A stretch of DNA of 54,700 bases from Candidatus Nomurabacteria bacterium (GCA_026395895.1 JAPLXV010000021.1:1-54700), one strand, 5' to 3'. Counted from the stretch's first letter, positions 1-54,700 are shown. Made by a program: numbers and translations. The notes: generated by a model from the letters alone, not told the origin.

Positions 1-998
1 TACCAAGCGGGGGAGAAAGTGACTATACCGCTCCCACCATAAGTGGTAATTATTCTAAAGGAATAGAAGGAAAAATAACTGTTTCAATTTATTACACTGG
101 AAATGGTGTTAGCTTTAGTGTAGGTGGAATTGCAAGCGGTGGCGGTATTGTTACTACTACCACACCTCAACCGATTGGAGACTCTGGTTTGTATATAAAA
201 TTTCCAAGTACTACCTCTTCTAATGTTACTGAATGGGTCATCAATATTCCTAACAAAAAAGCATCCGACTATTTAACTAATTACAATGCATACCAAGTAG
301 CCCTAGAAAATCAAAATCAAACGGTAAAAAATGCGCAAGCATCTCTTGACCAAGCTAACGCTTCCTTGGCTGCATTATTGACTCCTGCTCGCTCAGAAGA
401 TATCGCACAAGCGCAAGCGAATGTAGATAGTATAATTGCTAAAATTCAAAATGCTAAAATTATCGCGCCTATCAGTGGCGTCATTACGCAGTTTGATGCA
501 AAAGTTGGTCAATTTGCATCTTCAAGTGTGCCTCTCGTTTCCATAATATCAAGTGGTGGTTATGAAATAGATTCAGGTGTTTCTGAAACTGATATTGGAA
601 AAATTTTGATTGGTAATAAAGTTACAATGACACTTGATGCTTTTCCGAATGAAACTTTTACTGGGACAGTATTTTATATTGCCCCGTCGGAAACAAATGT
701 ACAAGGAGTGGTGGACTATCAAGTTAAAATTTCTTTTGACAAATCTGACCCGCGATTAAAAAGTGGATTAACCACCAATATTGATATCCAAACAAAACAC
801 AAAGATAATATTTTAGTTCTTCCACAATATGCTATTCTGCAAAACGACCAAGGAACATTTGTGGAGACACTTGAAAATAATGTAATTAAACAAAATCCTG
901 TAACACTTGGCATCGCAGATCAAAAAGGAAATGTTGAAATAATCTCCGGTGTTACTTTAGGCGAACAAGTTCTAAACATTGGACTTAAAGCGCAATGA
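1..998 (+). CDS. HlyD/MacA-type periplasmic adaptor subunit of an ABC efflux system (5' end outside window)
   Basis: The frame is open from nt 3 with no stop. It has a coiled-coil segment (QASLDQANASLAALL...AQAQANVDSI) followed by adaptor beta-barrel-like motifs (IIAPISGVITQ). An ATGA overlap joins it to the downstream ABC ATPase. Confidence 0.8.
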   Translation, partial: PSGGESDYTAPTISGNYSKGIEGKITVSIYYTGNGVSFSVGGIASGGGIVTTTTPQPIGDSGLYIKFPSTTSSNVTEWVINIPNKKASDYLTNYNAYQVALENQNQTVKNAQASLDQANASLAALLTPARSEDIAQAQANVDSIIAKIQNAKIIAPISGVITQFDAKVGQFASSSVPLVSIISSGGYEIDSGVSETDIGKILIGNKVTMTLDAFPNETFTGTVFYIAPSETNVQGVVDYQVKISFDKSDPRLKSGLTTNIDIQTKHKDNILVLPQYAILQNDQGTFVETLENNVIKQNPVTLGIADQKGNVEIISGVTLGEQVLNIGLKAQ

Positions 999-1702
999 TT
1001 GAAGTAAGTGATTTAAAAAAAGAATACCTAGAAGAAGAAACACCGACTAGAGCTCTCCGTGGAGTAACTTTTTCTATTGAAAAAGGGGAGTTCGTTTCCG
1101 TGATGGGACCTTCCGGTTCCGGTAAATCTACTCTTCTTCATATCTTGAGTTTTCTCGATCGGCCAACTGGCGGATCCTATAAATTTCAAGGAAAAAGTAT
1201 TGATGAGATGACAGATAAAGAGCTCGCCCAAGTTCGCAATAAAGATATGGGCTTTGTTTTTCAATCATTCAATTTACTTTCTCGATTGACGGTATATGAC
1301 AACGTTGAAATACCACTTCTTTATTCCGATATTCCACCTAGCAAGCGCGCTACTCTGGTGGAAGAAGCGGTTCGGTCTGTCGGACTTGAAGAAAAATTAC
1401 ATACTGAAGCTGGCAAACTCTCCGGTGGTCAAAAACAACGTGTAGCTATTGCCCGAGCGCTGGTAACCGACCCCAATATTATTTTTGCTGATGAGCCCAC
1501 AGGTAATCTTGATTCGGAGTCAGGTTTGCAAGTTATGGAAATACTTGAATCACTAAATGACAAAGGTCGCACTGTGGTATTAGTAACGCACGAAACTCAA
1601 ACTGCCGAATTTGCTAATCGCATTATTAGAATAAAGGATGGCATGATTGAAAGTGATAAAGAAATTATCGCCAATCGTCATCATCGTGGTAATTTAAAAT
1701 AA
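995..1702 (+). CDS. ABC transporter ATP-binding protein (MacB/LolD type)
   Basis: Walker [13 protein letters not shown] signature LSGGQKQR and Walker B IIFADEPT are all present. Confidence 0.95.
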
Positions 1703-1703
1703 T

Positions 1704-2951
1704 ATGCTTTTTAGAGATGCTTTTAAAACTTCTACCCGCAGTCTGACACATGGAAAAATGCGTTCGATTTTAACCATGCTTGGTATCGTTATTGGTATCG
1801 CTTCGGTAATCATTCTTATGTCCATCGGACAATCAGCTCAGGATTTAATTATAAATCAAGTGCAGAGCGTCGGTTCTAATCTTATTGTGGTTATACCCGG
1901 TACACCTTCTAATGGTAAATTTTCTCCTTCTGCCGCTGAACAAGGTATTGTCGTTACTACTTTAAGACAAAAAGATATTGATGCCTTGGAGCGTGAACCT
2001 TCTATAGATGCGGCTGCACCTTTGGTTAGCGGACAAGCCGAAATTGTTTATGGAAATAATAATAAAATAGTAAGTTACCAAGGAGTAACTGCTAATATGT
2101 TTGTCATACGAAACCTTACTGTCGGAAAAGGGTTTGCTTTCACAAAAGCGGATGTTGATTCCGCAAATCATGTAATAGTAATCGGACCTGGTCTTGCCAC
2201 TACACTTTTTGGTCCTTACGTTAACCCTATAGATAAAATCATCCGAATGAAAAATATTTCGTTTCGGGTTGTAGGAGTGTTAGCGAAAGGTGGAACAGGA
2301 GCTTTCGGAGTTGACCAAGGAAATATTGCTATCATCCCTATAACTATTGCTCAGAAACAATTACTCGGAATTTCTTATTTCAGTACAGCTCTGGTTCAAG
2401 CAAATCAAAAATATGATATCACTTTTGCAGAATCACGTATAAGATTTACTTTACGTCAAAGCCATGGCATAACCGATCCGAACAAAGATGATTTCAATAT
2501 ACTAACGCAAGCGGATATTTTATCTATTCTTGGTACAATTACTTCAGTTCTGACACTTTTCTTAGCGGCTATTGCTTCTATTTCACTTATCGTCGGCGGT
2601 ATAGGTATTATGAATATTATGCTTGTCTCCGTTACAGAAAGAACCCGAGAAATTGGACTTCGCAAGGCGGTTGGGGCAACAAATAATGACATCTTGCAAC
2701 AATTTCTTATTGAATCGGTTTTACTAACTTTTATAGGCGGAATAATAGGTATTGCCATAGGCGCAGGTATTGTAGGGCTTATTTATTTTGTGCTTTCAAC
2801 TTTCTTTTCTATCGGCTGGGTTTTTGCTTTTCCGATTTCAGCTGTAATTTTAGGACTTGCGGTATCTGGTATTGCCGGTATGGCTTTTGGAATTTATCCG
2901 GCTTATCAAGCTGGCAAAAAAAATCCAATTGATGCATTACGATATGAATAA
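1704..2951 (+). CDS. ABC transporter permease, FtsX/MacB family with extracytoplasmic domain
   Basis: N-terminal TM helix, ~230 aa non-membrane domain and a C-terminal FtsX-type TM bundle (GIMNIMLVSVTERTREIGLRKAVGA). It starts 2 nt after the ATPase stop. Confidence 0.9.
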   Translation: MLFRDAFKTSTRSLTHGKMRSILTMLGIVIGIASVIILMSIGQSAQDLIINQVQSVGSNLIVVIPGTPSNGKFSPSAAEQGIVVTTLRQKDIDALEREPSIDAAAPLVSGQAEIVYGNNNKIVSYQGVTANMFVIRNLTVGKGFAFTKADVDSANHVIVIGPGLATTLFGPYVNPIDKIIRMKNISFRVVGVLAKGGTGAFGVDQGNIAIIPITIAQKQLLGISYFSTALVQANQKYDITFAESRIRFTLRQSHGITDPNKDDFNILTQADILSILGTITSVLTLFLAAIASISLIVGGIGIMNIMLVSVTERTREIGLRKAVGATNNDILQQFLIESVLLTFIGGIIGIAIGAGIVGLIYFVLSTFFSIGWVFAFPISAVILGLAVSGIAGMAFGIYPAYQAGKKNPIDALRYE

Positions 2952-3127: not shown

Positions 3128-4837
3128 ATGGAAACTAGAACATGTCAAAATTGTAAAATAGAGTTTGTAATAGAAAAGGAGGATTTCAAATTTTATGAAA
3201 AAATAAAAGTCCCTCCGCCAACTTTTTGTCCGGAATGCAGACTAATCCGACGACTTAGTTGGAGAAATGAACGCTCTTTGTTTCATGCAAAATGTGATAA
3301 TTGTGAGAAAAAAATATTTTCTTCATACGCCTCAGACAGTATTTCCCCCGTTTTTTGTAAAGATTGCTGGTTTTCTGATGCTTGGGATCCTCTTGCTTAT
3401 GGAAAAGAATATGATTTTTCTAAACCATTTTTCTTACAATTTAAAGAATTATTTAATAAAGTTCCAAAACTTAATCTTTTTCATATAAATTCTAAAAATT
3501 CTGATTATTCTAATATAATTAGGGATTGTAAAAATGTATATCTTTCATATTCTATAGTAGAAGGAGAAGATATTTTTTATTCTAAAGATATCGATCATTC
3601 GAGACAAATTTTTGATAGTCTTACCATAAATGATTGTGAAAAATCAGCTTTTCTCGTTTATTGTGCAAACGATTACAACGTCATTTATTCTATAACTGTC
3701 TTAGATTGTTTTGATTCAATGTTTTTATATGATTGTCGAAACTGCTCTAATTGTTTTATGTCAGCCAATTTACGTAATCAACAATATGTATTCAGAGAAA
3801 AAAAATATCCAAAAGAAGAATATTTTAATTTAATAAGTAAAATTAATACCGGTAGTTATGAAGAATTCGAGAAATTGATTGTGGAATTTGAAAAAATGAA
3901 AGAAAGAGCAATTCATCGATATTCTCAAGTGGGTAAATTAGTTATTAATTCGACAGGCGATGCAATTTCTAACACTCGAAACTCTAGAGAATGTTTCAAC
4001 GCATATGATATGGAAAATACTAAATGGACTTATCGATGTTTTGCCTTAAAAGATGCCTATGATTCTAATTACGGAGGACTTAATTCGGAATTGGTGTATG
4101 AATTTATTTCTGGAGGAAAAGAACAGAGTAAAGCTTTTTTTACAGTAGCTGCTATGAATTTTTTGCGTGATACTTACTATACTGGTTGGAGTAATGGATT
4201 TAAACTTTTTGGTTGTTTTGGTGTTAGAAATGGAAAGTATTGTATTCTAAATAAACAATACACAGAGGAACAATATGAGGAACTGGTTCCAAAGATAATA
4301 AAACATATGGTTGAGATACCATTTGAAGGAGAAGACGGAAGAAAATACTATTTTGGTGATTTTTTTCCATTTGAATTATCTTTTTATGCATATAATGAAT
4401 CTGCAGCTCAAGAAATTTTTCCACTGACCTTTGAACAAATAAAAAATAAAGGTTATATTTATAGAGAAAGTGAAAAGAAAAAATATGAAATAACTAAAAG
4501 AACAGAAGACCTACCAGATAATATTTTTGAAATAACTGATAACATTTTAAAAGAAATTATTGAATGTGAACATAAAGGGAGATGTTTGCATCAATGTACT
4601 ACTGCTTTCAAAATACATCCAGAGGAACTTTCTTTTTATCGTAACTTTAAACTTCCAATTCCTCGTTCATGTCCAAATTGTAGATTTTATAAAAGATTAG
4701 AATATCGTAATCCTTGGAAATTGTGGCATAGAAAGTGTATGAAAGAAGGATGTCAAAATGAATTTGAAACTAGTTATGCTCCTGACAGACCGGAGATTGT
4801 TTATTGTGAGAGGTGCTATCAGCAGGAGGTTTATTAG
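3128..4837 (+). CDS. Cys-rich multi-zinc-ribbon protein, paralogue A (function unknown)
   Basis: 569 aa. N-terminal CQNCK...FCPECRLIRRLSWRNE, central repeats ending CRNCSNCF...NLRNQQY, and C-terminal CPNCRFYKRLEYRNPWKLWHRKC...CQNEFETSYAPDRPEIVYCERCYQQEVY. It is clearly homologous to 47167..48903 and 51831..53582. Confidence 0.85.
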   Translation: METRTCQNCKIEFVIEKEDFKFYEKIKVPPPTFCPECRLIRRLSWRNERSLFHAKCDNCEKKIFSSYASDSISPVFCKDCWFSDAWDPLAYGKEYDFSKPFFLQFKELFNKVPKLNLFHINSKNSDYSNIIRDCKNVYLSYSIVEGEDIFYSKDIDHSRQIFDSLTINDCEKSAFLVYCANDYNVIYSITVLDCFDSMFLYDCRNCSNCFMSANLRNQQYVFREKKYPKEEYFNLISKINTGSYEEFEKLIVEFEKMKERAIHRYSQVGKLVINSTGDAISNTRNSRECFNAYDMENTKWTYRCFALKDAYDSNYGGLNSELVYEFISGGKEQSKAFFTVAAMNFLRDTYYTGWSNGFKLFGCFGVRNGKYCILNKQYTEEQYEELVPKIIKHMVEIPFEGEDGRKYYFGDFFPFELSFYAYNESAAQEIFPLTFEQIKNKGYIYRESEKKKYEITKRTEDLPDNIFEITDNILKEIIECEHKGRCLHQCTTAFKIHPEELSFYRNFKLPIPRSCPNCRFYKRLEYRNPWKLWHRKCMKEGCQNEFETSYAPDRPEIVYCERCYQQEVY

Positions 4838-23018: not shown

Positions 23019-25046
23019 TTAAAACCAAATCTCATTTTTATCTAAAACCCTAACAACTACCCCCTGCATTCTAACTTCTTCGTTTGTTTTAAACTTTAAT
23101 GGTTTATGTTCCGAGTTACTAGAGTTGGGTTTTAAAACTAAGTAACCATTTTCTCTACGATATTCCTTTATTGTAGCATCATCGCCAATAAGTGCTACTA
23201 CCTTTTTCCCTTCTTCTGGACGGTAATTTTTCACACATAAAACTAGGTCTCCATCATTAATTCCAGCTTTATTCATAGAATCCCCTTTCGTCCTCAAAAC
23301 AAAATATTTTGATCCTTTTGACATATAATCTTTTCTAACTGAAATCATTTCTTGAACTGTCGGATCAGCATACATTAACTCTCCACAACCAACTGATTCA
23401 AACAACGGAACGCTAACCATTTCAAATTTATCAGCATATGGCGACCTAACCAGACTAATTATTTTTTCTTCTTTCTCTTTATTGTTTATTTTATTTTTAA
23501 AGTATTCTGCAAGTTTTTTATCTACTGCATAAATAAAAGTCCCTTTTATACCTCTCGTCAAAAGAGTTTTATATATATTTATAATATATCTTTCTAATTC
23601 CAAGGGATCAGTAATACCCCTCCAGCCATTCGTATCCATGTAATTATCTGAGTTTATAATTAATTTATTATTTTCTTCATCATATGAGAGTTCTGGTCCA
23701 ATAATTACACCAACATAATTTAAGTCATATCCCTGCACCGTGTGAATACAACCAACCTCATTTATTGCATTTTTCGAATTTACCCAATCTTGATTTGTAC
23801 TATTCCAAAACAATTTCAAACCATCAATTTCAATATCATGGATATTCGGATTATTTTTGCTTTTCCATTCCCACGCATATCCAGCAACTATTCTACAAAG
23901 CTTTAATTCCAAATCTTTTTTCTTTATATCGTCTACCATTTTATGTATATCTTCATAAAACCTTAAATCATAGTTCGGAAAACTGTATTTACTTAAATTT
24001 TTTAAATCAAACAAATCATCAATAAAATTAATATATTCTTCGCCAGCACTTATTCTTTGTTGGCTAGTTAAATCATAATGAACAGCATTCATTTGAGTAA
24101 ACTTTCTAGGTCTTACATCGGCTGGTTTAATTGTCTGATTTTTATCATAAAAAAATATTTGATGCTTAGATGATTTTAAAATCCAATCCAACTCAGTTCC
24201 AGAATTATCAAGATCTAATTTTTTATTTGTTATATCAAAAGACTGATAATTAGCTATATTTTTTCTTTGTTTTAATCTATGTGCTTCATCAACGATCAAA
24301 ATATCATAATTTTTATTTACAACTTCATTTGGACCAATCACCATACTTGTTTTTAGCCCTTTTACTTGAGAAAAAACTTTTCTTATTGTTTTCCTAAGAG
24401 ATGTCATGGGTACAACCAAAGCTATCTCAAGATTTTTTGTTTCTTCTTTTTCTTTTAAAAATTTGGCCAAATACACCGCTAATATCGTTTTTCCTGTTCC
24501 TGGTTTACCATTTACTACAAAAGTTTTTTCTTTATTCTCTTTTATATCTTTAAATATACTTCTGGCAACAATTATTTGATCTTCTGTAAGGGATTTATAC
24601 GGTGAATATTTAAATAAATCACTATTCTTTATTTGTACCAAATCTTTTTTTACGAGAGACATTTCCTGTAACTTTTGCCAAATAGTTTCAAACTTTGCTT
24701 GATATTTTTGTCTATCATAATAATTATGATTCAATAAACCTTGGTTCCCATTTTGTAATACAAAAGAACCTTCAGCAGACATATATTGGATAAGGGAAGA
24801 TTCAATGTCCAATGTAGCTGACTTGTTGTATTCTTCATCGCTAATTATATGTATCCTTTTTAACTTTTTTCTTTCTGGGTTTTCGTAATGCTGATTACTT
24901 CTACCATAAATATTAACTGTTTCTCCAATATATATTTCTCTGCCATCTTCAATAAGATAAACAACTGGCCAATTAATACCAAAATGATATGACCTCATCT
25001 GATCAAATTCCTTCTTATCAAACAATAAGGTCTTTATCTCAGCCAT
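23019..25046 (-). CDS. GIY-YIG nuclease / DUF2075 (SF1-like P-loop helicase) / LexA-UmuD-type S24 peptidase fusion protein
   Basis: The N-terminus, VVYLIEDGREIYIGETVNIYGRSNQH, is GIY-YIG-like. The core has Walker A GKPGTGKT, Walker B ILIVDEAHRL and HTVQGYDLNYVGVII. The C-terminus has PLFESVGCGE (cleavage-site-like C-G as in UmuD), GDSM (Ser nucleophile) and ATIKEY (Lys). Confidence 0.8.
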   Translation of the reverse strand: MAEIKTLLFDKKEFDQMRSYHFGINWPVVYLIEDGREIYIGETVNIYGRSNQHYENPERKKLKRIHIISDEEYNKSATLDIESSLIQYMSAEGSFVLQNGNQGLLNHNYYDRQKYQAKFETIWQKLQEMSLVKKDLVQIKNSDLFKYSPYKSLTEDQIIVARSIFKDIKENKEKTFVVNGKPGTGKTILAVYLAKFLKEKEETKNLEIALVVPMTSLRKTIRKVFSQVKGLKTSMVIGPNEVVNKNYDILIVDEAHRLKQRKNIANYQSFDITNKKLDLDNSGTELDWILKSSKHQIFFYDKNQTIKPADVRPRKFTQMNAVHYDLTSQQRISAGEEYINFIDDLFDLKNLSKYSFPNYDLRFYEDIHKMVDDIKKKDLELKLCRIVAGYAWEWKSKNNPNIHDIEIDGLKLFWNSTNQDWVNSKNAINEVGCIHTVQGYDLNYVGVIIGPELSYDEENNKLIINSDNYMDTNGWRGITDPLELERYIINIYKTLLTRGIKGTFIYAVDKKLAEYFKNKINNKEKEEKIISLVRSPYADKFEMVSVPLFESVGCGELMYADPTVQEMISVRKDYMSKGSKYFVLRTKGDSMNKAGINDGDLVLCVKNYRPEEGKKVVALIGDDATIKEYRRENGYLVLKPNSSNSEHKPLKFKTNEEVRMQGVVVRVLDKNEIWF

Positions 25047-45624: not shown

Positions 45625-46518
45625 ATGATAGACAGGATAATAAACACGGAAGATATAAAAGATGCTGACACTGTTTTGTTTAGCGTGCCATATGAAAATG
45701 GTATTTCTTTTATGAGTGGCACAGCTAAAGCTCCTGCAAAAATTATAGATTGCCTAGATAACTATCTAGAGCTTTTTGATGTGGATTTACTTTGCGAACC
45801 AGCGAAATTGTTAAAAACAGCTCATCAGGAAATTACTGGATTAGAAAAATTTATTCCCGAAGAGGCAATGAAAAAGATTAGTTCTGTATATCAGAAATTT
45901 ATTGATCTTAAAAAATTCACTATTCTTTTAGGTGGTGCCCATACAGTTTCTTTTGGGGCATTAAAAGCAATTTCTCAAAAAGAAAACCCAAAAGACATAA
46001 CCATATTACAAATAGATGCTCATCAAGATTTACGTGATAATAATTGTGATTACGATGAAAAATGCGAAAAATTCGCTCATTCTTGCGTAATGCGCAGAGT
46101 GCATGATCTTGGTTTTAACTTGGTGCAAGTGGGAATCAGAACTTTTTCCAAATACGAATATAATTTTGAAATGGAAAATAAAAAAACAATCACTGTTTTT
46201 CCATGGACTAAAAACAGCAAAATACCAAAAATTGAAGATATCATAAAATCAATTAAAACAGAAAAAGTTTATCTATCTCTTGATGTGGATGGCATAGATC
46301 CGAGTTTTATGCCAGGTACCGGCACACCCGTGCAAGGAGGACTCGATTGGAACTATACTCTCAATTTGATGGAAAAATTATTTGAGAAAAAAAACGTGAT
46401 AGGGGCAGATATTGTAGAAGTTTCTCCGCAACAAAATTCTGTTCTCACTGAATTCGGTGCATCATTGCTTTGTTATAAAATGATGACCTATAAATTTAAG
46501 AAAAAACTTCTTTCTTAA
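45625..46518 (+). CDS. speB: Arginase-family ureohydrolase (agmatinase-like)
   Basis: GGAHTV, IDAHQDLRD and SLDVDGIDPSFMPGTGTP are the metal-binding motifs. Confidence 0.85.
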   Translation: MIDRIINTEDIKDADTVLFSVPYENGISFMSGTAKAPAKIIDCLDNYLELFDVDLLCEPAKLLKTAHQEITGLEKFIPEEAMKKISSVYQKFIDLKKFTILLGGAHTVSFGALKAISQKENPKDITILQIDAHQDLRDNNCDYDEKCEKFAHSCVMRRVHDLGFNLVQVGIRTFSKYEYNFEMENKKTITVFPWTKNSKIPKIEDIIKSIKTEKVYLSLDVDGIDPSFMPGTGTPVQGGLDWNYTLNLMEKLFEKKNVIGADIVEVSPQQNSVLTEFGASLLCYKMMTYKFKKKLLS

Positions 46519-47086
46519 AAAACTTTTTGTGAAGAATAGTAAAACTAATTATTGAGTTAATCACTATGAAATAAATACCCAAAGAGTATATAGAAAAGCT
46601 CCATTCCTTTATTATTAATAATCCTATTATATTATTAAAAATTCCCAGTAGATAAAGATAAGCATTTTCTGTTTCCGGGAATTTCCAAGATTTAACAATA
46701 GTTGGTATAGCAGCTAGCCCATCGCTTAAAATTACAAAAAGAATAGAAATTTCTAAACTATGCGTAAATACATAAAGTACTAGAGCCAATAAAGCAAGAA
46801 TCCCGCATACTAAATCAAAAAGTGTAATTTTCCAATAACCATTTTTCAAAATTAAAGAATAAATAATAACTAAAAGCGGACAGAAACCTGCCGCAAATAC
46901 AGGAAATACAGAAAAGCCTGCTCCTGCTTTTAATTGAAAATATACTCCCAAAAATGGAGCCAACATCCAAATAAACCAAGAAACTAAATTTGGTTTAGCG
47001 TGTCCCAAATACATGCTTCTCAAATAAATAAAATCTCCTACAAAACTTACCATAACTGCAATGATGATTATTTTTTCAGGCAACAT
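46496..47086 (-). CDS. Hypothetical polytopic membrane protein (about 6 TM)
   Basis: 196 aa and strongly hydrophobic. No family was recognised. Confidence 0.55.
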   Translation of the reverse strand: MLPEKIIIIAVMVSFVGDFIYLRSMYLGHAKPNLVSWFIWMLAPFLGVYFQLKAGAGFSVFPVFAAGFCPLLVIIYSLILKNGYWKITLFDLVCGILALLALVLYVFTHSLEISILFVILSDGLAAIPTIVKSWKFPETENAYLYLLGIFNNIIGLLIIKEWSFSIYSLGIYFIVINSIISFTILHKKFFKKEVFS

Positions 47087-47166
47087 AAATTTTACTACTT
47101 ATCACTTTTACACACCTGTTAAAAATTGATAATGTTTCAATCTACGTCATGGCGTAGATGCATTTT

Positions 47167-48903
47167 TTAGTAAACCTCTTGCTGATAACATTTTTCACAA
47201 TACACAATTTCTGGTCTCTCGGGAGCATAAGAAGTTTCAAATTCATTTTCACAGCCTTCTTTCATACAATGTCTATGCCAAAGTTTTAGAGGATTTCTTT
47301 GTTTTAATCTATTATAGTGTCTACAGTTAGGACAGAGGTGAGGAATGGGTAGATTCATCCTTTGGTAGAACTTTAGTTCATCTGGAATGATTTTGAAGGC
47401 TTCAGTGCATTGTTCATTACAAGTGCCTTGATGTTCGCATTCTATTACTTTGTTGATGATAGAATCATCTACTTCTTTGATATCTAAGAGTATATTCTCT
47501 GTTTTGATGTCTATTTGATAGTTTCTTTCTTCTTTCTCTTTCCATTTATAACCTTGTTTTAAAGCTTCTTCTTTGGTTAATGGAAAGTATTCTTGAGCTA
47601 TGGTTTCGTTGTAACAAAAGGGACTTAATTCTGGAGGAAAGAACTCTCCGTATTTGTATATTCTACCTTTACTATCTATATAGGGCATATCATTCATGTG
47701 CTTGATGATTTTGGGGACCAAGGCCCCATACTCTTCCTTGGTGTATTGTTTGTTTAGGATGCAGTAGGATTTGTTTTTTAGGCCAACACAGGCAAATAAA
47801 TCATGAGAAGAAATACAATTATATGAATAAAAAATCCTATTACTTCCTTTTATAAAATTACTAAAATAATAATCAGCATTTTCGTTAGATTCAAAGCCTA
47901 TAGCAATGGTTTCATAAACTCTTTCAGCGGTAGGCATACCATAATTATCATATGAATCTTTTACTCCTAAAACAACATAATGGGTATATTTACAATTCTC
48001 CGACCCTGTTCCAAAAATATCAAAACAATTGTTACAATTTCTAGTGTTTAAAAGATTATCCCCAGATGAATTTTGGGTATTTATTAAGTTTGCATATTTG
48101 TGAATTGACTTTTCGTAAAAATCTTCAAATTTTAATTTAAATTTTTGAAGATTCTCGAATTTATCTAAATTAAATTCCCTAATCTTTTCTAAATATTCTT
48201 CTCTCTTATATTGTTCATTCCAAATGCAATAACTTTTATTTCTTAAATTAGTGCAACCAAAACAGTTCAAGCAATTTCTGCAGTCATATAAAAACATAGA
48301 GTCGCTGCAATTCACACATTGTTTACTAAAAATTAACTTAAAAGAACCTTCACATTCTATATTTTCATAACAAAGCTCCAACTTATCTCCACTGAAAATA
48401 TCCATCGACTCTTTGCAAAAAGAAGCATTTTTGGCATATAAAACTCGCTCATCATCTTTACCCCCAAAACAAAGATAACAATCCTTGTTATTAGCAGTGT
48501 AATTACAATAATCAGAATTCATTTGTCTGCCTCCAGAAAATAAACTAATCACTGGAACTTTTTTAAATAAAGACTGAAATTGTTCAAAAAATAATTTAGA
48601 AAATTCATAATCTATTCCACTAGTCATCGGATTCCAATCATCGCCCCACCAGCATTCATAACAATAAACATCATGAGGAAAACTAGAGTTATACATAGAG
48701 ATAATATTTTTACCACAATTAGTGCATTGTCTTTTATAAAAAGTCCTTTCATTTCTCCATATTAACCTTCTTACCAACCTGCATTCCGAACAAAAGGTCG
48801 GTGAAGGAACTTTCATTTTTTCATAAAATTTTAAATCATCTGGCTCGATTGTGAAGTCTTTTTTACAGTTTTGACATGTTCTGTTTTCGCTGACATTATT
48901 CAT
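47167..48903 (-). CDS. Cys-rich multi-zinc-ribbon protein, paralogue B
   Basis: 578 aa. Its termini are near-identical to paralogue A (CPNCRHYNRLKQRNPLKLWHRHC...CENEFETSYAPERPEIVYCEKCYQQEVY). Confidence 0.85.
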   Translation of the reverse strand: MNNVSENRTCQNCKKDFTIEPDDLKFYEKMKVPSPTFCSECRLVRRLIWRNERTFYKRQCTNCGKNIISMYNSSFPHDVYCYECWWGDDWNPMTSGIDYEFSKLFFEQFQSLFKKVPVISLFSGGRQMNSDYCNYTANNKDCYLCFGGKDDERVLYAKNASFCKESMDIFSGDKLELCYENIECEGSFKLIFSKQCVNCSDSMFLYDCRNCLNCFGCTNLRNKSYCIWNEQYKREEYLEKIREFNLDKFENLQKFKLKFEDFYEKSIHKYANLINTQNSSGDNLLNTRNCNNCFDIFGTGSENCKYTHYVVLGVKDSYDNYGMPTAERVYETIAIGFESNENADYYFSNFIKGSNRIFYSYNCISSHDLFACVGLKNKSYCILNKQYTKEEYGALVPKIIKHMNDMPYIDSKGRIYKYGEFFPPELSPFCYNETIAQEYFPLTKEEALKQGYKWKEKEERNYQIDIKTENILLDIKEVDDSIINKVIECEHQGTCNEQCTEAFKIIPDELKFYQRMNLPIPHLCPNCRHYNRLKQRNPLKLWHRHCMKEGCENEFETSYAPERPEIVYCEKCYQQEVY

Positions 48904-48964
48904 AATTTTGACTCCTCAAGGCCTTACCTTTGGGCTCTTTTTAAGGCAAGGCCTTTTCCCGCCA

Positions 48965-50059
48965 TTATATCCCCTCTTTTTTAAGCTGTTCAAAAAGTTC
49001 GCGGGATTTACGAGAAACTTTGGAAGGAAGTTTTATTTTGAGTTTAATTAACAAATCGCCACGTTTGTTTTTAGAAAAAGGAACGCCTTTTCCTTTGACT
49101 CGAAGAATTTCGTTAATGGACACCCCTTCCGGAATCTTGACGCTTATTTGTCCGTCTAACGTTTGAATAGGATATTCCGTGCCCAAAAGAGCATCAGAAA
49201 GTCTCAAATCCAAATTCATTACTAAATCATTGCCCTCTCTTTTAAATATCGCATGCGAAGCAACATTTACTTTTATATATAAATCGCCAGCTGTTCCTTT
49301 TGTAATTGCTTCACCACCTCCTGTCATGCGAATCATTTCTCCATCTCGCATACCAGCTGGAATATTTATAGAAATCTCTTCTTCACGACGCAATACTCCT
49401 TTACCTTTACAATTTTCACATTTTTCTTTTGGCACTTCTCCGGAACCTAAACATTCCTCACAAATTTTTGTGCTAGAAATAGTTCCAAGAATTGTCCTTT
49501 TAGCTTCGCGAATTTTTCCTTGACCATTACAATATTTACAGGTTTCCATTTTGGTTCCAGGTTTTGCTCCGGTTCCACTACAAGTAGCACAATTTGATGT
49601 TTTGGTAATTAAAACTTTTCTGCTAGTACCAAAAACAGATTCAGAAAAAGAAATCTGTATTTCAGTAGAAATATCGCGTCCACGTCTGGCTTGGGTTCTT
49701 CCCCCTCCCATTCCGCCGGTAAAGAAATCACTAAAGATATCATTCAAATTTCCAAAATCAAAATCTGCACTGCCATTTTGAAAACCAGAGAAGTCAAACC
49801 CTTCAAATCCTCCTTGTCTAAAACCTCCATATCCTTGCCCTTGTCTCATGTTTTCAAAACCAGATCCAAACTGATCGTATTTTGAACGTTTAGAATCATC
49901 CGAAAGCACCTGGTAAGCTTCATTCACTTCTTTGAATTTAGTTTCATTTCCCTCTTTTTTGTCAGGATGATATTTGTGCGCCAACTTATAAAAAGCCTTC
50001 TTTATTTCATCTTTAGAGGCACCTTTATTAACGCCCAAAACATTATAATAATCTTTCAT
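48965..50059 (-). CDS. dnaJ: Molecular chaperone DnaJ
   Basis: J domain with HPD, a G/F-rich linker and four CxxCxGxG zinc-finger repeats. Confidence 0.95.
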
Positions 50060-50151
50060 AGATTTTTAAAGAGTAAAACGATTATAAAAATCATGACCCT
50101 GTTAAATGCCCTTAGGCAATTTTTGCAAAAGCAAAAATTATTTAACAGGGT
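50060..50151 (-). promoter_or_regulatory. Structured upstream cassette, copy B (same orientation relative to dnaJ as copy A is to rplI)
   Basis: The minus strand reads accctgttaaataatttttgcttttgcaaaaattgcctaagggcatttaacagggt-catgatttttataatcgttttactctttaaaaatct-ATG. Stems match copy A while loops differ, and it contains a TATAAT. Confidence 0.6.
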
Positions 50152-50187
50152 AATGAAAACCATAGTCGCCCTGCTCCTTGGTTTTCA

Positions 50188-51708
50188 TTATATCATAGGT
50201 TCGGCTTCTCCAGAAGTTTTACCTTTTGTTTTTGTTTCAGAAACTTCTTTCGCTCCTGTTTCTTCTCCCTCTTTTTCTTCAGCCTCTTCTTTATCTTTCT
50301 TTTTTCCCTTTCCTTCAATTATTGCTTTCTCTTCTGCACTTCTAATAATTGTAGCCTCCTCTTCTTCTATTAGTTTTTGAGCATCACCTTTTGGTATTGA
50401 ATATTTCCTGCGAGATGCGTCTAAGATTTCTTGACGATATGATTGATGGGTTGGAGGAAGAACTCGAAGAGTCTCTGCTGAAAATGGGTCATAAGATTCT
50501 CCATCAATAGTCATTTTAATATAAAATTCTGCCACGGCAAGGTTAATCATGTCCTTCACACCGAATAAAGGTTCAAACTCTGGTTTTAATTTAACTGCAT
50601 CTTCCCCACCCACTCTAAAACAAATCAAACTTCCTGTGTTTCCTAGCACCGCATGTTGCACTTGTGGAATAAGTTGGCCGATGTATTGGTGCGCTATCGT
50701 CAAATTAAGAGCATATTTTCTAGCTTCTGATAAAATATTTTCAAATGTTTGAGTAACGATATTATGAAACTCGTCTATGTATAAATAAAAATCTCTACGT
50801 TCTTCTTCTGGAATACTGGCCCGCTCCATTCCTGCCTGTTTTATTTTAGTTAAGAACATGGAACCGAAAAAACTGGAATTTTCTTCCCCGATACGCCCTT
50901 TGGAAAGGTTGATAAAAATTATTTTTCCCTGATTCATTAAATCACTGATATCAATTTTATTTTGTTTTTGACCGAAGATATTTCGCAGTAATGGATCGGA
51001 CAAAAATTGTCCAAGTTTATTAACCAATGGAATGATGGCGTCCGTATCAAATTTTTCAGACCAATCCGCAAATTCAATAGCGAAGAATCTTTTAACCATG
51101 TCATCGGTAATATATTCCACCACTTTTTGTCTGTAATTTCTGTCTGTCAACATTGAGATCATCCCGCGCATGGTAGCGTGCGGATAATCCAACAAAGCCA
51201 AGCAGGTAAAACGAAAAACGTGTTCCAAGCGGGGCGTCCAGTTGGCCCCGAATTGTTTCTGTAAAACTTCAATCAACCCTTGAGTTAATTGAAATTTAAA
51301 CATCGGGTCCACATTAGCAAGTGGATTGAAAGACGCCGGAAAATCAACATCACCCGGATCTATTACACAAACATCCTCTATGCGTTCCTTTGGTATAAAA
51401 TCAAGCATGGCTTCGATAACATCGCCGTGCGGATCAATAAAACATAAACCATGATTATAGGTCACATCTTGACGCATTAAAAGTTCCAATAATTTACTTT
51501 TTCCAACTCCGGATTTTCCGACAATATAAAGATGTCGTCTGCGGTCTATTCGCTTGATACCGAAAATAAATTTTTTCTCCTCCAGAGAAGCAACATAATT
51601 CGTGCGTCCAATAAAAGAAACCTCTTCGGGTTTCACTTTTCCAAACACCGGCAATTCTGGTGGCGGTGGTCCATATTTGATTATTTGCACTCGATTCTGT
51701 CTTAGCAT
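50188..51708 (-). CDS. VirD4/TraD-like (type IV coupling protein family) P-loop NTPase, copy 1
   Basis: Walker A GKSGVGKS and Walker B FYLYIDEFH, then SEARKYALNLTIAHQY, with an acidic/lysine-rich tail. Confidence 0.75.
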   Translation of the reverse strand: MLRQNRVQIIKYGPPPPELPVFGKVKPEEVSFIGRTNYVASLEEKKFIFGIKRIDRRRHLYIVGKSGVGKSKLLELLMRQDVTYNHGLCFIDPHGDVIEAMLDFIPKERIEDVCVIDPGDVDFPASFNPLANVDPMFKFQLTQGLIEVLQKQFGANWTPRLEHVFRFTCLALLDYPHATMRGMISMLTDRNYRQKVVEYITDDMVKRFFAIEFADWSEKFDTDAIIPLVNKLGQFLSDPLLRNIFGQKQNKIDISDLMNQGKIIFINLSKGRIGEENSSFFGSMFLTKIKQAGMERASIPEEERRDFYLYIDEFHNIVTQTFENILSEARKYALNLTIAHQYIGQLIPQVQHAVLGNTGSLICFRVGGEDAVKLKPEFEPLFGVKDMINLAVAEFYIKMTIDGESYDPFSAETLRVLPPTHQSYRQEILDASRRKYSIPKGDAQKLIEEEEATIIRSAEEKAIIEGKGKKKDKEEAEEKEGEETGAKEVSETKTKGKTSGEAEPMI

Positions 51709-51741
51709 ATATCATTATTCTAACATATTTTTTGTTTTAAT

Positions 51742-51824
51742 TCCCTTCTTGAGGGGTGGCTCGCTTACGAGACGGGGTGGAAAATTTATCCACCTCCCCC
51801 TAAGGGTTACTCCTCAAGAGGAGA
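51742..51824 (-). terminator. Compound GC-enriched hairpin downstream of paralogue C
   Basis: The outer pairing is tcccttcttgagg/cctcaagaggaga. The inner pairing is ggggtgg-aaaatttat-ccacc(t)cccc. There is no clean U-tract. Confidence 0.4.
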
Positions 51825-51830
51825 ATAATG

Positions 51831-53582
51831 CTAGTAAACTTCTTTATTATAACAATTTTCACAGTAAATTGTTTCCGGTCTATTGGGAGGGTAAGCAGTT
51901 TCAAATTCATTTTGACATTTTCCATTGTGCTCATGATTTAATTTATCACACATACAAACCCTGTGCCACAATTTCATCGGATTGCGTTTTCTTAATCGAG
52001 CTTCATGACGACAAATAAAACAAAGACATGGTAATGGAACTCCTAATTGTCTATATAAATTAAGCTCATTTTCTGTTATTTTATATGCTCCTAAACAGCG
52101 TTCCTGACATTTTCCTTTATGCAAGCAACCTATGATTTCTCCCGTAATAGAATTGGATACATCTTTTAAATCATCTGGCAAATCTTCGGCTTGCATAGTT
52201 GTTACATATTCGCTTACTTTTTTGTCTCTCCATCGATATCCTTTTTTTAATGCCTCTTCCTTGGTTATGGGAAAATAATCTAGAGCCACTGTTTCATTAT
52301 AGGCAAAGGTAGATAGTTCAACTGGAAAAAATTCTCCATATTTGTAAATAATTCCCCTCTTGTCTACATAAGGCATATCCATCATATGTTTAATAATTTT
52401 TGTCCTGAGTTCATCGAAGGATTCTTTAATATATTGTTTATTTAAAATACAATATTTTTTGCTTCTTAGCCCGATACATCCAAATAAATCGGAACAGCCG
52501 TGGCAATTGAAAGAATACTCTATATTGTGAGAACTATAAACCACACTGGTAAATAAATTGCGATAATTTCCTATTCCTGTATCAAATACTTCATACATCA
52601 TTTCCCCTTCTCCTACTCCGGGACCAGAATCGTATAAATCTTTCGCCTGAAGAGCTATCCAATGGGAATATTTGCAGTCATCAATACGCGTTCCCGTCGC
52701 ATCAAAACAAATTTTGCAATTTTTTACTCCATCCAAATTGTCACCGGTTGAATTCACTATTTTTGAATGATTCATATAACGGTGTATCGATTTAAAGTAA
52801 AGTTCGTCAAACTTTTCTTTCAATTTTGAAACAGTTTCATAACTTTTTAAATTTATTTCTGCCAAACGACTGAGATATTCATCTCTCCCGAGTTGTTCAT
52901 TCCACATGCAATATGATTTATTGCGAAGATTAGTACAGCCAAAACAATCTATACAACCATGGCAATCATATAAAAAATATGAATCTACACAACTTTTGCA
53001 ATTGAAAGAATATAAAGTGTGATAGCAGTCCGAACAGAATAATGATTCATAACAAAGCTCGCAACGATGAGCAACATAAAGATCAGAACAATCTTTGGTG
53101 TACGATATTCTGTTTGAATAAAATGTTCGATCGATGCGCCAAGACCCAGAACACAGATAGCTGTCTTTGCTCCCTTCGGCTACATTACAATAATCACTAT
53201 TGGTAGCTTTTATATTTGAAAGACATTGAATTGGAACACTATTTCGGAGTTCTTTCCATTGTTCAAAAAAGGGCTTCGAAAAATCATATGGTTTACCGTA
53301 AGAAAGAGGATTCCATTCGTCTCCCCACCAATATTGGGAATCGCATACATTAAGTTTTTCGTCCGGATGAATGAAAGAAATCAGAATTTCATCGTGACCT
53401 GAAACATTACACTTTCTTCTAAAAAAAGACATCTCGTTTCGCCAACATAAGCGTCGAACAGTCCGACATTCTGGGCAGAATGTCGGCGCAGGTACTTTTA
53501 TTTTTTCGTAGAAAGAAAAATCCTCAGTTTCTATAGTGAAGTCTTTTTTACAATTTTGACATTGTCTGACTTCGTTTTTCAT
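51831..53582 (-). CDS. Cys-rich multi-zinc-ribbon protein, paralogue C
   Basis: 583 aa with the same architecture as paralogues A and B. Its start lies only 5 nt after the stop of the upstream ATPase gene. Confidence 0.85.
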   Translation of the reverse strand: MKNEVRQCQNCKKDFTIETEDFSFYEKIKVPAPTFCPECRTVRRLCWRNEMSFFRRKCNVSGHDEILISFIHPDEKLNVCDSQYWWGDEWNPLSYGKPYDFSKPFFEQWKELRNSVPIQCLSNIKATNSDYCNVAEGSKDSYLCSGSWRIDRTFYSNRISYTKDCSDLYVAHRCELCYESLFCSDCYHTLYSFNCKSCVDSYFLYDCHGCIDCFGCTNLRNKSYCMWNEQLGRDEYLSRLAEINLKSYETVSKLKEKFDELYFKSIHRYMNHSKIVNSTGDNLDGVKNCKICFDATGTRIDDCKYSHWIALQAKDLYDSGPGVGEGEMMYEVFDTGIGNYRNLFTSVVYSSHNIEYSFNCHGCSDLFGCIGLRSKKYCILNKQYIKESFDELRTKIIKHMMDMPYVDKRGIIYKYGEFFPVELSTFAYNETVALDYFPITKEEALKKGYRWRDKKVSEYVTTMQAEDLPDDLKDVSNSITGEIIGCLHKGKCQERCLGAYKITENELNLYRQLGVPLPCLCFICRHEARLRKRNPMKLWHRVCMCDKLNHEHNGKCQNEFETAYPPNRPETIYCENCYNKEVY

Positions 53583-53587
53583 TTTTT

Positions 53588-54700
53588 TTATTCCAGAATT
53601 TTTCTCAAAACATCTTCTGGAACTTCTTTTGTTTTATTTTCCGGAGCTTTTTGCGAAATTAAATCTTTCAACTTATCCATATCTTCTTTGCTGGCAGATC
53701 TATCTTTTAATGTGGTATTTGGTGAAGGCTTTGGATTTTTTAACTCATTTAAAGATATGGCTGGTTGGACCTCACCCCTTGCTTTCCCCTCTCCTTGATA
53801 AGGAGAGGGGTTGGGGAGAGGTGAATTTGTTTCTTTTTTTTCTTCATTTAACGTTTTATTTAAAATCTCCCTTAAAGCTGTATTATCTCTAGGTTTTTCT
53901 GTCGAAACAGAACTTTTTGTAAAAACTTTTTTAATTGTTGAAAATATTTTTGGACCCGAAGATGGAATATTTTTTTGAATTGAAGTTTGAACTGGGATTT
54001 TTTTATCAAAACTTTGAGGTTTATCAATTCTTTCCGGATATCTTTCTGTCTCCCCGTTTCCATCTTTTTGTTTAAATTCTATACCTAAATCTGCCAAAGG
54101 TTTGTAAAATAGAGTTTCATCTTGTTTAATTTGTTTTATGGATCCGGCAATGGGTTTTATTTCTCCAGATTTTATCTTAGCAATACAATCTTTACAATAA
54201 ACTGCTCTGCCTAGTTCTGGTTTAAAAGGTACGGTTGTATCTTTTTTACATATATCACATGTGGTTGGAAATCTTTCCACTCCGCCGATATTGCTGTCAT
54301 CGCTCCAATCATTTATCTCTCGTTCTACCACTTCTCTTGATCTGCAATATAAAGCGCGAGAAGAATTAATAACTTCTTCCTCCACTTTTTTATTTCCGGA
54401 TTTAACCATAGGCGGAATAGTTTTAGCGGAAAAAGGGCGAGAAGACACTCCATCTATCATTAATTTCAAATAAACTTTAAAGTTCGGTAAATTAACAATA
54501 TCTTGAGGAGTAAATTCCGGCTCGAATTCCTTTTCTAAAAATTCCGCGTCATCTGCACCTACTCTAAAAACTATCATCGTCCCAACGTTTCCAAAAATAG
54601 CATCCCGAACACTTGAATTTTTCTCCGTTACAAGTTGAGCAGTGTATTGATGAGCCACAGTAAGATTTAACCTATATTTTCTAGCCTCAGATAAAATACC
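53588..54700 (-). CDS. VirD4/TraD-like P-loop NTPase, copy 2 (5' end outside window) with a C-terminal zinc ribbon and disordered tail
   Basis: The frame stays open to the window edge (GILSEARKYRLNLTVAHQYTAQL, compare copy 1 ILSEARKYALNLTIAHQYIGQL). The tail contains CDICKKDTTVPFKPELGRAVYCKDC. Confidence 0.8.
   Translation of the reverse strand, partial: GILSEARKYRLNLTVAHQYTAQLVTEKNSSVRDAIFGNVGTMIVFRVGADDAEFLEKEFEPEFTPQDIVNLPNFKVYLKLMIDGVSSRPFSAKTIPPMVKSGNKKVEEEVINSSRALYCRSREVVEREINDWSDDSNIGGVERFPTTCDICKKDTTVPFKPELGRAVYCKDCIAKIKSGEIKPIAGSIKQIKQDETLFYKPLADLGIEFKQKDGNGETERYPERIDKPQSFDKKIPVQTSIQKNIPSSGPKIFSTIKKVFTKSSVSTEKPRDNTALREILNKTLNEEKKETNSPLPNPSPYQGEGKARGEVQPAISLNELKNPKPSPNTTLKDRSASKEDMDKLKDLISQKAPENKTKEVPEDVLRKILE
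53786..53810. repeat. GC-rich palindrome embedded in-frame in the ATPase-2 tail
   Basis: cccctctcctt-gat-aaggagagggg is followed by ttggggagaggtga. It is translated as PLPNPSPYQGEGKARGEV. Confidence 0.6.

Follow-up and report, generated by a model that had tools for sequence, protein, structure and literature searches.

Soluble coupling protein-like ATPases and a variable family of Cys-rich zinc-module proteins recur together in Patescibacteria

The window analyzed here, a whole stretch of 54,700 nucleotides from Candidatus Nomurabacteria bacterium (GCA_026395895.1, JAPLXV010000021.1:1-54700), carries at positions 47,167 to 54,700 the genes for two ATPases resembling VirD4 and TrwB (ATPase-1 and ATPase-2), two large Cys-rich proteins (CysB and CysC), and the co-chaperone DnaJ. 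This region is best explained as one copy of a conserved Patescibacteria module, in which two soluble VirD4/TrwB-like ATPases of the hexameric type are accompanied by a variable set of zinc-scaffold proteins. In the Nomurabacteria-like clade the module is placed inside the Hsp70 cluster, in the order ATPase-2, zero to four Cys-rich genes, ATPase-1, dnaJ, and zero to two further Cys-rich genes. Some functional coupling between the two families appears likely. More tentatively, we infer that the Cys-rich proteins might be interchangeable zinc-scaffold adaptors, or else clients, of the ATPase pair.

A first reading of the region, made from the sequence alone, had paired the two families by function, and synteny statistics across genomes show that their adjacency is conserved, with strong linkage in both of our anchored samples. 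For the sample anchored on the Cys-rich family, a divergent seed alignment was used to collect 80 metagenome loci. A VirD4-like ATPase is encoded in 22 of these 80 loci, against approximately 2.0 expected by chance from about two VirD4-like genes per 0.9 Mb, and among loci of at least 15 kb it is encoded in 12 of 26, against 1.1 expected (binomial P of approximately 1e-10). Adjacent gene pairs are co-directional in all but one case, and the gaps between them are short. The dnaK/dnaJ backbone described below is missing from 13 of the 22 ATPase-bearing loci, and linkage without nearby dnaK or dnaJ is seen in L087, L130, L139, L140, L136, and L097. In L087, L130, and L139 the ATPase is a 745-amino-acid form that is 45 to 52% identical to ATPase-1, while in L097 and L136 both ATPase types flank four Cys-rich genes.

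The Cys-rich genes also form tandem arrays of up to nine co-directional paralogs in 20 kb (L089, L091, and L151; also L084, L087, L098, L131, and L139). Nine-gene arrays are found in L091 (Ga0074195_1000011, a 540-kb contig) and L151 (AMFJ01000091.1), with 88 and 151 in-frame TGA codons, respectively; since TGA is the only in-frame “stop” in these arrays, they come from recoded (TGA-sense) lineages of the candidate phyla radiation (CPR). Inside the L091 array lies a gene for an ATPase resembling the type IV coupling proteins (T4CPs). All-against-all clustering of open reading frames (ORFs) found no other neighbor family of comparable frequency. For the 143 array neighbors, which are the non-Cys-rich, non-ATPase genes outside dnaK-type loci, a Pfam scan returned TrmB-type regulators as the sole recurrent family (11 of 143); two ZIP zinc transporters and three GrpE proteins are also present. 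No type IV secretion system (T4SS) or relaxase gene was found among these 143 neighbors, the flanks of the ATPase-anchored loci not having been scanned explicitly for VirB4.

The TrmB-family regulators, winged-helix proteins of approximately 250 amino acids, are encoded within or at the edge of arrays and mostly antisense to them (L087 5469-6230, minus strand; L088, L098, L111, L117, L139, and L141). Another locus, on an 800-kb Nomurabacteria scaffold (L001 8001-11438), holds two tandem Cys-rich genes with no ATPase within 8 kb; the pair adjoins GH130 genes and the genes for a class II ribonucleotide reductase and a TerC-family membrane protein, a context which indicates that members of the family are found at unrelated places on the chromosome as well.

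The second sample, anchored on ATPase-1, consists of 80 loci from GTDB species representatives and displays a fixed backbone of grpE, a PaaX-like regulator, dnaK, ATPase-2, ATPase-1, dnaJ, and a small membrane protein. We observe dnaJ directly downstream of ATPase-1 in 69 of the 69 loci with enough flank and ATPase-2 upstream of ATPase-1 in 61 of the 62 loci with room for it. Farther upstream are dnaK and the divergently transcribed regulator with its PaaX_M domain, and then grpE; beside grpE, beyond the regulator, are two small genes that look ribosomal-protein-like, a likeness not checked with profiles. The cluster ends with a membrane protein of approximately 190 amino acids, the conserved last gene in more than 50 relatives, and its 196-residue copy in the window might provide the anchor-less ATPases with a partner in the membrane.

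The number of Cys-rich genes varies around this backbone. In the 61 loci showing both ATPases, the interval between them holds 0, 1, 2, 3, and 4 Cys-rich genes in 16, 17, 21, 6, and 1 loci, respectively, and thus at least one in 45. The slot after dnaJ is filled in 11 of the 78 relatives scored, and some loci have additional copies between grpE and the PaaX-like regulator. Cys-rich subfamilies have preferred slots, the commonest order being ATPase-2, cB or cD, cA, and ATPase-1. An ortholog of CysC with at least 65% identity is kept in 11 of 64 loci, and an ortholog of CysB with at least 60% identity is found in none of the 64; median identities in the same loci are 85% for ATPase-1 and 77% for DnaJ. 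ATPase-1 evolves far more slowly than the Cys-rich genes, and the split between the two ATPases (approximately 46% identity) is therefore much older than that between CysB and CysC (49%). The sequence-only reading had derived the region from tandem duplication of a two-gene unit of ATPase and Cys-rich protein, and that part of it is ruled out by the fixed backbone, by the zero to four Cys-rich genes between the ATPases, by the slower evolution of ATPase-1, and by the position of CysB after dnaJ rather than after an ATPase. Comparison of these sequences indicates instead that ATPase-1 and ATPase-2 are ancient fixed paralogs, and that Cys-rich genes come and go around both.

Three further observations concern the chaperone-cluster loci. 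No CIRCE/HrcA operator was found in the relatives’ loci. The interval between the PaaX-like gene and dnaK in the loci L003 to L083 (for example, L003 ~2623-2709) contains a sigma-70-like promoter, TTGACAT...TATATACT, followed by a 30-bp conserved palindrome, ACAAGTATTTCG(C/T)GGTCGCGAAATACTTGT, in 39 (+1) loci. Promoter and palindrome are confined to this interval, which lies outside the window, and the palindrome is probably a lineage-specific heat-shock operator in place of HrcA/CIRCE. In addition, genes for CutA1, a protein of divalent-ion tolerance, adjoin Cys-rich genes or sit in the interval between grpE and the PaaX-like gene (L097 12838-13179; L061, L067, L140, and L157), and these and the ZIP neighbors may indicate a metal connection. 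Finally, L014 (JAMPXW010000002.1) and many CAY* and CAZ* records are labeled “Burkholderiales bacterium” or “uncultured Candidatus Saccharibacteria”; their ATPase-1 is 85 to 90% identical, and the labels are probably taxonomic mislabels, or the Nomurabacteria-type contigs mis-binned.

The Cys-rich proteins had been taken from the sequence for cytoplasmic, multiple-zinc-ribbon members of an uncharacterized family, and each of these points is supported. They have no signal peptide and no transmembrane segment, each contains several CxxC...CxxC zinc modules, and no match was found in Pfam or NCBIfam; searches of PDB sequences, including a profile search, returned nothing better than an E value of 0.4, and those of PADLOC and PHROGs returned noise only. 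Literature searches likewise gave no description of this family, its arrays, or the arrangement of dnaK, two T4CP-like genes, and dnaJ. The family comprises 4,505 clusters at 50% identity with an E value of at most 1e-3 and 2,014 with an E value of at most 1e-30. A 90%-clustered database contains more than 7,000 matches, every named one a “hypothetical protein,” with organism labels that point to Paceibacteria (Nomurabacteria, Paceibacterota, Niyogibacteria, and similar). Nearly all among the 150 best clusters listed are 550 to 600 amino acids long. There was no match in IMG/VR or PLSDB, and hence no phage or plasmid carriage was detected.

Two internal duplications, recognized by profile-profile comparison of sub-alignments, give these proteins a pseudo-symmetric plan of zinc module, repeat A, repeat B, α/β domain, and zinc module. 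The N-terminal module (residues 7 to 85) matches the C-terminal one (485 to 578) with an hhalign probability of 99.7% (E value, 4e-26), and repeat A (133 to 243) matches repeat B (281 to 396) with a probability of 99.9% (E value, 6e-36). Each terminal module combines a CxxC...CxxC ribbon with a finger of zf_Tbcl spacing, C-x2-C...(V/I)YC-x2-C. Sub-threshold matches to PF13451 occur in 20 of 36 members (best E value, 9e-4), and 3 of 36 match, weakly, PF23477, the finger type also borne on the ATPase-2 tail; CysB, CysC, and CysA (a third paralog in the window) themselves have no zf_Tbcl match at an E value of 0.1 or less. An alignment of 298 family members shows terminal cysteines conserved at 97 to 100% and both GCxxLRNKxYC motifs conserved, interior Cys positions conserved at 35 to 70%, and variable repeat interiors. 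These members have 24 to 53 Cys per protein (median, 34) and a median isoelectric point of 6.3, with no conserved histidine or recognizable catalytic motif in the alignment. The AlphaFold2 (AF2) model of CysC is confident overall (predicted template modeling score, 0.81; mean predicted local distance difference test [pLDDT], 79.5). With this model Foldseek found no neighbor in PDB (best E value, 3.3) and in BFVD solely matches of 44 to 67 residues to phage zinc-ribbon proteins; as modeled, the fold is apparently new.

As for the ATPases, Pfam and Foldseek place them in the VirD4/TrwB-like branch, in agreement with the VirD4/TraD-family assignment proposed earlier. ATPase-1 scores above the cutoffs of PF02534 (T4SS-DNA_transf; 27.5 bits, cutoff 20.1), PF10412 (TrwB_AAD_bind; 24.6 bits, cutoff 20.5), and PF01935 (DUF87/HerA; 25.6 bits, cutoff 23.2), and it has the Walker A motif GKSGVGKS and the Walker B motif FYLYIDEF. 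Full-length orthologs of ATPase-2 score 40 to 58 bits on PF10412 and bear a zf_Tbcl_2 finger in their tails, and the one in L003 (653 amino acids) is matched by PF10412, PF01935, PF12696, and PF23477. Compared on the single related contig L003, full-length orthologs of ATPase-1 and ATPase-2 are 46% identical over 429 amino acids, and ATPase-1 is 83 to 94% identical across the 80 species representatives. The AF2 model of ATPase-1, built from a shallow alignment (83 to 92% identity), is of low confidence (pLDDT, 52.9) and hints no more than weakly at Cagβ and HerA: its five top Foldseek matches are chains of Cagβ, the VirD4 homolog of Helicobacter pylori (probability, 1.0; template modeling score, approximately 0.4), and SIR2-HerA ranks sixth behind them. 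In this low-confidence model a helical block at residues 135 to 245 lies between the P-loop strand and Walker B.

Neither ATPase shows an N-terminal membrane anchor on a Kyte-Doolittle plot. The 19-residue mean peaks at 0.96 to 1.13 in ATPase-1, ATPase-2, and the long form of L087, compared to 2.4 reached by membrane proteins from the same loci; without a hydrophobic segment the ATPases appear soluble, unlike canonical coupling proteins. VirD4 and the other T4CPs are substrate receptors. The ATPases here have a T4CP-like domain but are not canonical coupling proteins: the anchor is missing, and no T4SS or relaxase gene was found among the scanned window ORFs or the array neighbors. Their likeness to T4CPs (VirD4, TrwB, TraD, and Cagβ) extends to the nucleotide-binding P-loop domain, with its Walker A and B motifs and, in the low-confidence model, a possible helical insertion; to the above-threshold Pfam matches and the best Foldseek match to Cagβ; and, with TraD as the parallel, to long C-terminal tails that carry short conserved peptides at their ends. 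Unlike T4CPs, they have no N-terminal transmembrane domain; no virB4, mating pair formation, or relaxase genes were found adjoining among the scanned window ORFs and the array neighbors; they occur as two fixed paralogs per locus, core-chromosomal and within a chaperone cluster; and they are just 26 to 39% identical to plasmid homologs, the best being from Sulfitobacter (39%). Since two defining T4CP features are missing, the membrane anchor and the linkage to T4SS or relaxase genes, their sequences are best labeled as those of soluble T4CP-like ATPases, related to coupling proteins.

The strongest library match of the ATPases is to phrog_5156, a phage family without known function (E values, 3e-50 and 2e-63). 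Along with solubility and the above-threshold DUF87 match, this match is a likeness to the soluble HerA/FtsK ATPases, from which they differ in that the ATPase/Cys-rich neighborhoods showed no partner nuclease such as NurA or SIR2. The ATPase core aligns with the C-terminal half of phrog_5156 (approximately positions 387 to 818 of 824), and the profile has approximately 390 additional N-terminal positions. A third T4CP-like paralog of 745 to 915 amino acids is likewise extended, by 300 to 500 soluble N-terminal residues, and comes straight after a Cys-rich array in L087, L130, and L139. The contexts of plasmid and phage homologs (Sulfitobacter and Bacillus plasmids, Bacillus phages) gave no clue, the homologs being orphan genes or having hypothetical neighbors, and defense-system libraries returned solely weak matches at the P-loop level.

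The tails of the ATPases are distinctive. That of ATPase-2 is long and of low complexity, and within it sits a bona fide member of the CxxC-x17-CxxC fingers (PF23477, zf_Tbcl_2, 44.7 bits with a cutoff of 27, residues 142 to 175 of the fragment; TIGR04272, 46.2 bits with a cutoff of 36). Zinc binding has been shown experimentally for CxxC-x17-CxxC small proteins of Methanosarcina mazei (PMC12704099). The ATPase-2 tail is accordingly a true member of the zf_Tbcl fingers (PF23477, PF13451, and TIGR04272), and the second finger of each Cys-rich terminal module shares their spacing, with weak matches; known members are small proteins or tails, whereas the Cys-rich proteins embed such fingers in a multidomain protein of 580 amino acids. 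The ATPase-1 tail is acidic and lysine-rich. Beyond variable low-complexity linkers, the extreme C termini are near-invariant across species, reading EAEPMI in ATPase-1 and DVLRKILE in ATPase-2. The tail of TraD from the F plasmid binds TraM, and by this analogy the conserved peptides suggest short linear docking motifs on a flexible tail.

From these features we propose that Cys-rich proteins would bind to the ATPase pair, the contact being made by the conserved zinc modules at their two ends, by the peptides and treble-clef finger of the ATPase tails, or by both. They would then serve as exchangeable subunits for recognition or as adaptors, or else as clients, with specificity set by their variable, solenoid-like interior. 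In the Nomurabacteria-like clade, co-expression with DnaK and DnaJ may help to fold and metallate proteins with 24 to 53 Cys, or may hand substrates on. Such a scheme would resemble the recruitment of TraM, DotN/IcmSW, or CagZ by T4CP tails, and DotL-DotN, Cagβ-CagZ, and the TraD tail with TraM are its closest functional analogies. In Legionella, DotN is a zinc-binding protein seated on the DotL tail, and in H. pylori CagZ regulates Cagβ, as stated in the title of PDB entry 8dol, a Foldseek match. The DotL-DotN/IcmSW/LvgA and Cagβ-CagZ systems are alike in joining a coupling-type ATPase to a dedicated partner. In our comparisons, however, the Cys-rich family resembles their partners in neither sequence nor fold, and those partners are small and single-copy, in contrast to Cys-rich proteins of 550 to 600 amino acids with up to nine tandem paralogs. 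The ClpB-DnaK bi-chaperone offers an analogy only: there too Hsp70/Hsp40 has genetic ties to an ATPase of the hexameric type, but the fold of that ATPase is AAA+ rather than FtsK/HerA/T4CP, and the chaperone context here is limited to one clade.

Several observations weigh against this adaptor or client scheme, and some of them speak for a rival account, in which a self-amplifying tandem family collects at a few permissive sites, the ATPase locus among them, without any shared function. Tandem families can build up at permissive sites in this way. Solitary Cys-rich genes and arrays without an ATPase exist, many of them far from any (CysA, L001, L089, L106, L108, L116, L125, and L137). The number of copies varies and is often zero: 16 of 61 relatives have no Cys-rich gene between the ATPases, and approximately five show none within 10 kb, which indicates that the ATPases do not need an adjacent one. 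The zf_Tbcl matches in the Cys-rich family are weak and fall under Pfam thresholds. Finally, a promoter and terminator scan of positions 46400 to 54700 yielded no operon-level support beyond chance, with promoter sites no more numerous than in shuffled sequence and without any minus-strand terminator between genes. Even so, we consider mere neighborhood rather unlikely. The pairing recurs where the ATPases are only 45 to 52% identical and the surrounding genes wholly different, the linkage exceeds chance by a factor of approximately ten or more, neighboring genes nearly always share a strand and are separated by short gaps, and a zinc-finger type is common to both families, although weak in the Cys-rich one.

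Another explanation regards the Cys-rich proteins as translocated effectors, recognized by the VirD4-like ATPases and exported to hosts via a T4SS encoded elsewhere, with DnaK and DnaJ holding the Cys-rich cargo unfolded and zinc-free before export. The established role of T4CPs as substrate receptors would suit it, as would the absence of a signal peptide and the huge amplification and fast turnover of the family in genomes of approximately 1 Mb, which resemble effector repertoires. In addition, Patescibacteria cannot grow as epibionts without their T4SS, for which no substrates are known (PMC12857230, PMC12102498). However, the ATPases have no membrane anchor, neither the 143 array neighbors nor the scanned window ORFs yielded a T4SS gene, the Cys-rich C terminus is a structured zinc finger rather than a disordered signal, and architecture and length are uniform, unlike in typical effector sets. 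In “Ca. Southlakia,” moreover, the T4SS genes are essential and the t4cp homolog is not (PMC12102498). We regard export as effectors as unlikely.

Equally improbable, in our view, is a stress or metal module, in which the Cys-rich proteins would be Hsp33-like redox-switched holdases or zinc buffers co-regulated with grpE-dnaK-dnaJ, and the ATPases a separate remodeling motor of the same regulon. Cys-rich genes do occupy three slots of the chaperone cluster, one of them (the grpE-dnaK interval) away from any ATPase; CutA1 genes repeatedly adjoin them, and ZIP transporters (2 of 143) and GrpE (3 of 143) are among the array neighbors. The high Cys content of 24 to 53 per protein and the single conserved promoter and palindrome upstream of dnaK also agree with such a module. 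Yet only one clade has the chaperone context, whereas the ATPase link persists in distant lineages; at least nine divergent paralogs are hard to account for by buffering alone; and interior Cys positions are just 35 to 70% conserved.

A bolder reading, to which we assign a low probability, is that the ATPase pair, as exapted coupling-protein motors assisted by Hsp70/Hsp40, selects Cys-rich proteins from a diversified, novel-fold repertoire and hands them over for delivery into host cells by the essential T4SS, as a hitherto unrecognized Patescibacteria-wide system. A defense system, pairing a HerA- or T4CP-like motor with diversified zinc-finger sensors of invading nucleic acid, is very unlikely: weak PADLOC matches of ATPase-1 to mad8 (1.2e-11) and HerA, the sixth rank of SIR2-HerA behind the five Cagβ chains, the match of the ATPases to the phage family phrog_5156, and the resemblance of diversified arrays to sensor repertoires speak for it, but synteny is stable in the core genome of 80 species beside housekeeping genes, the Cys-rich proteins have no PADLOC match above noise, effector domains, nucleases included, were not found, and searches of IMG/VR and plasmids did not recover the Cys-rich family.

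The favored module of soluble ATPases and zinc-scaffold proteins bears on a wider question. A survey of 2,918 Patescibacteria genomes counted 5,713 VirD4-like homologs, approximately two per genome, of which just 148 are near virB4; almost never beside a T4SS, these genes have a role that is openly left unresolved, and the authors consider exaptation possible (Quiñonero-Coronel et al. 2025, PMC12102498). Here, such orphan ATPases gain a concrete and testable context, namely a fixed anchor-less pair with docking-like tail peptides and a robustly linked partner family. That family is large (approximately 4,500 clusters at 50% identity, with at least nine tandem copies in genomes of approximately 1 Mb), unannotated, and without a fold match in PDB. 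A streamlined genome that spends 1 to 2% of its coding capacity on it implies an important function, which is probably related to lifestyle. Should the two families interact, they would represent a new use of a coupling-protein motor and an entry to protein and nucleic acid handling in CPR bacteria; should delivery through a T4SS be true, the Cys-rich proteins would count as the effectors or host-interaction factors that have long been sought in CPR epibionts. Motors with partners are already known as a kind, and there is a modest chance that the system here is categorically new.

Within the window, ORF listing and translation reproduced the minus-strand order read from the sequence (ATPase-2, CysC, ATPase-1, dnaJ, and CysB; Table 1), with gaps of 5 nucleotides between ATPase-2 and CysC (53583-53587) and 122 nucleotides between CysC and ATPase-1. 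The paralogy read within each family was also borne out. The block SEARKY-LNLT-AHQY...FRVG..DA..L..EFEP occurs in both ATPases, which by tblastn against the window are 47.5% identical over the 120 amino acids visible there, and the same search finds CysB and CysC 49% identical over 585 amino acids. CysA is 43 to 48% identical to these two. Judged from full-length orthologs of approximately 650 amino acids, approximately 280 N-terminal residues of ATPase-2 lie outside the window. The dnaJ product is matched by PF00226, PF00684, and PF01556 and, at 397.4 bits (cutoff, 377.2), by TIGR02349, which makes it an equivalog DnaJ.

Table 1. Coordinates of the module genes, their tail elements, and related features. 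Positions refer to the window unless a locus is named.
Feature	Position	Strand	Details
ATPase-2 (VirD4/TrwB-like P-loop ATPase)	53588..>54700	-	C-terminal 370 codons; open at window edge
Treble-clef CxxC-x17-CxxC zinc finger, ATPase-2 tail	54176..54277	-	PF23477, TIGR04272
C-terminal peptide DVLRKILE (ATPase-2), codons	53588-53614	-	Conserved across relatives
CysC	51831..53582	-	583 amino acids, 40 Cys; Cys-rich Patescibacteria family
ATPase-1 (VirD4/TrwB-like ATPase)	50188..51708	-	506 amino acids
C-terminal peptide EAEPMI (ATPase-1), codons	50188-50205	-	Conserved across relatives
dnaJ (Hsp40 co-chaperone)	48965..50059	-	Pfam and TIGR02349
CysB	47167..48903	-	578 amino acids, 37 Cys; CysC paralog, post-dnaJ slot
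Polytopic membrane protein (“p192”)	46496..47086	-	196 amino acids, no Pfam match; last cluster gene
CysA	3128..4837	+	569 amino acids, 28 Cys; solitary third Cys-rich paralog
Third T4CP-like paralog, L004	15189-17936		915 amino acids
Third T4CP-like paralog, L087	11849-14086		745 amino acids
Third T4CP-like paralog, L130	11336-13576		

At a distance of approximately 42 kb from the cluster, CysA comes directly after a transporter operon (HlyD-like protein, ABC ATPase, and MacB-FtsX; 189-2951, plus strand), on its downstream side, and two ORFs of 272 and 333 amino acids with no Pfam match come after it. The remaining window is core chromosome (dnaB, cysS, gltX, murG, ftsW, mraY-like, M17 aminopeptidase, and ABC/MacB transporter genes), with no T4SS, pilus, or relaxase gene among the scanned ORFs. 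Finally, a gene at 23019-25046 on the minus strand encodes a 675-amino-acid protein in which a DNA/RNA helicase domain of the Schlafen group-3-like type (PF09848; E value, 5e-66) is fused to a C-terminal Peptidase_S24 domain (LexA/UmuD-like), an unusual architecture that is possibly a self-cleaving sensor or defense protein.

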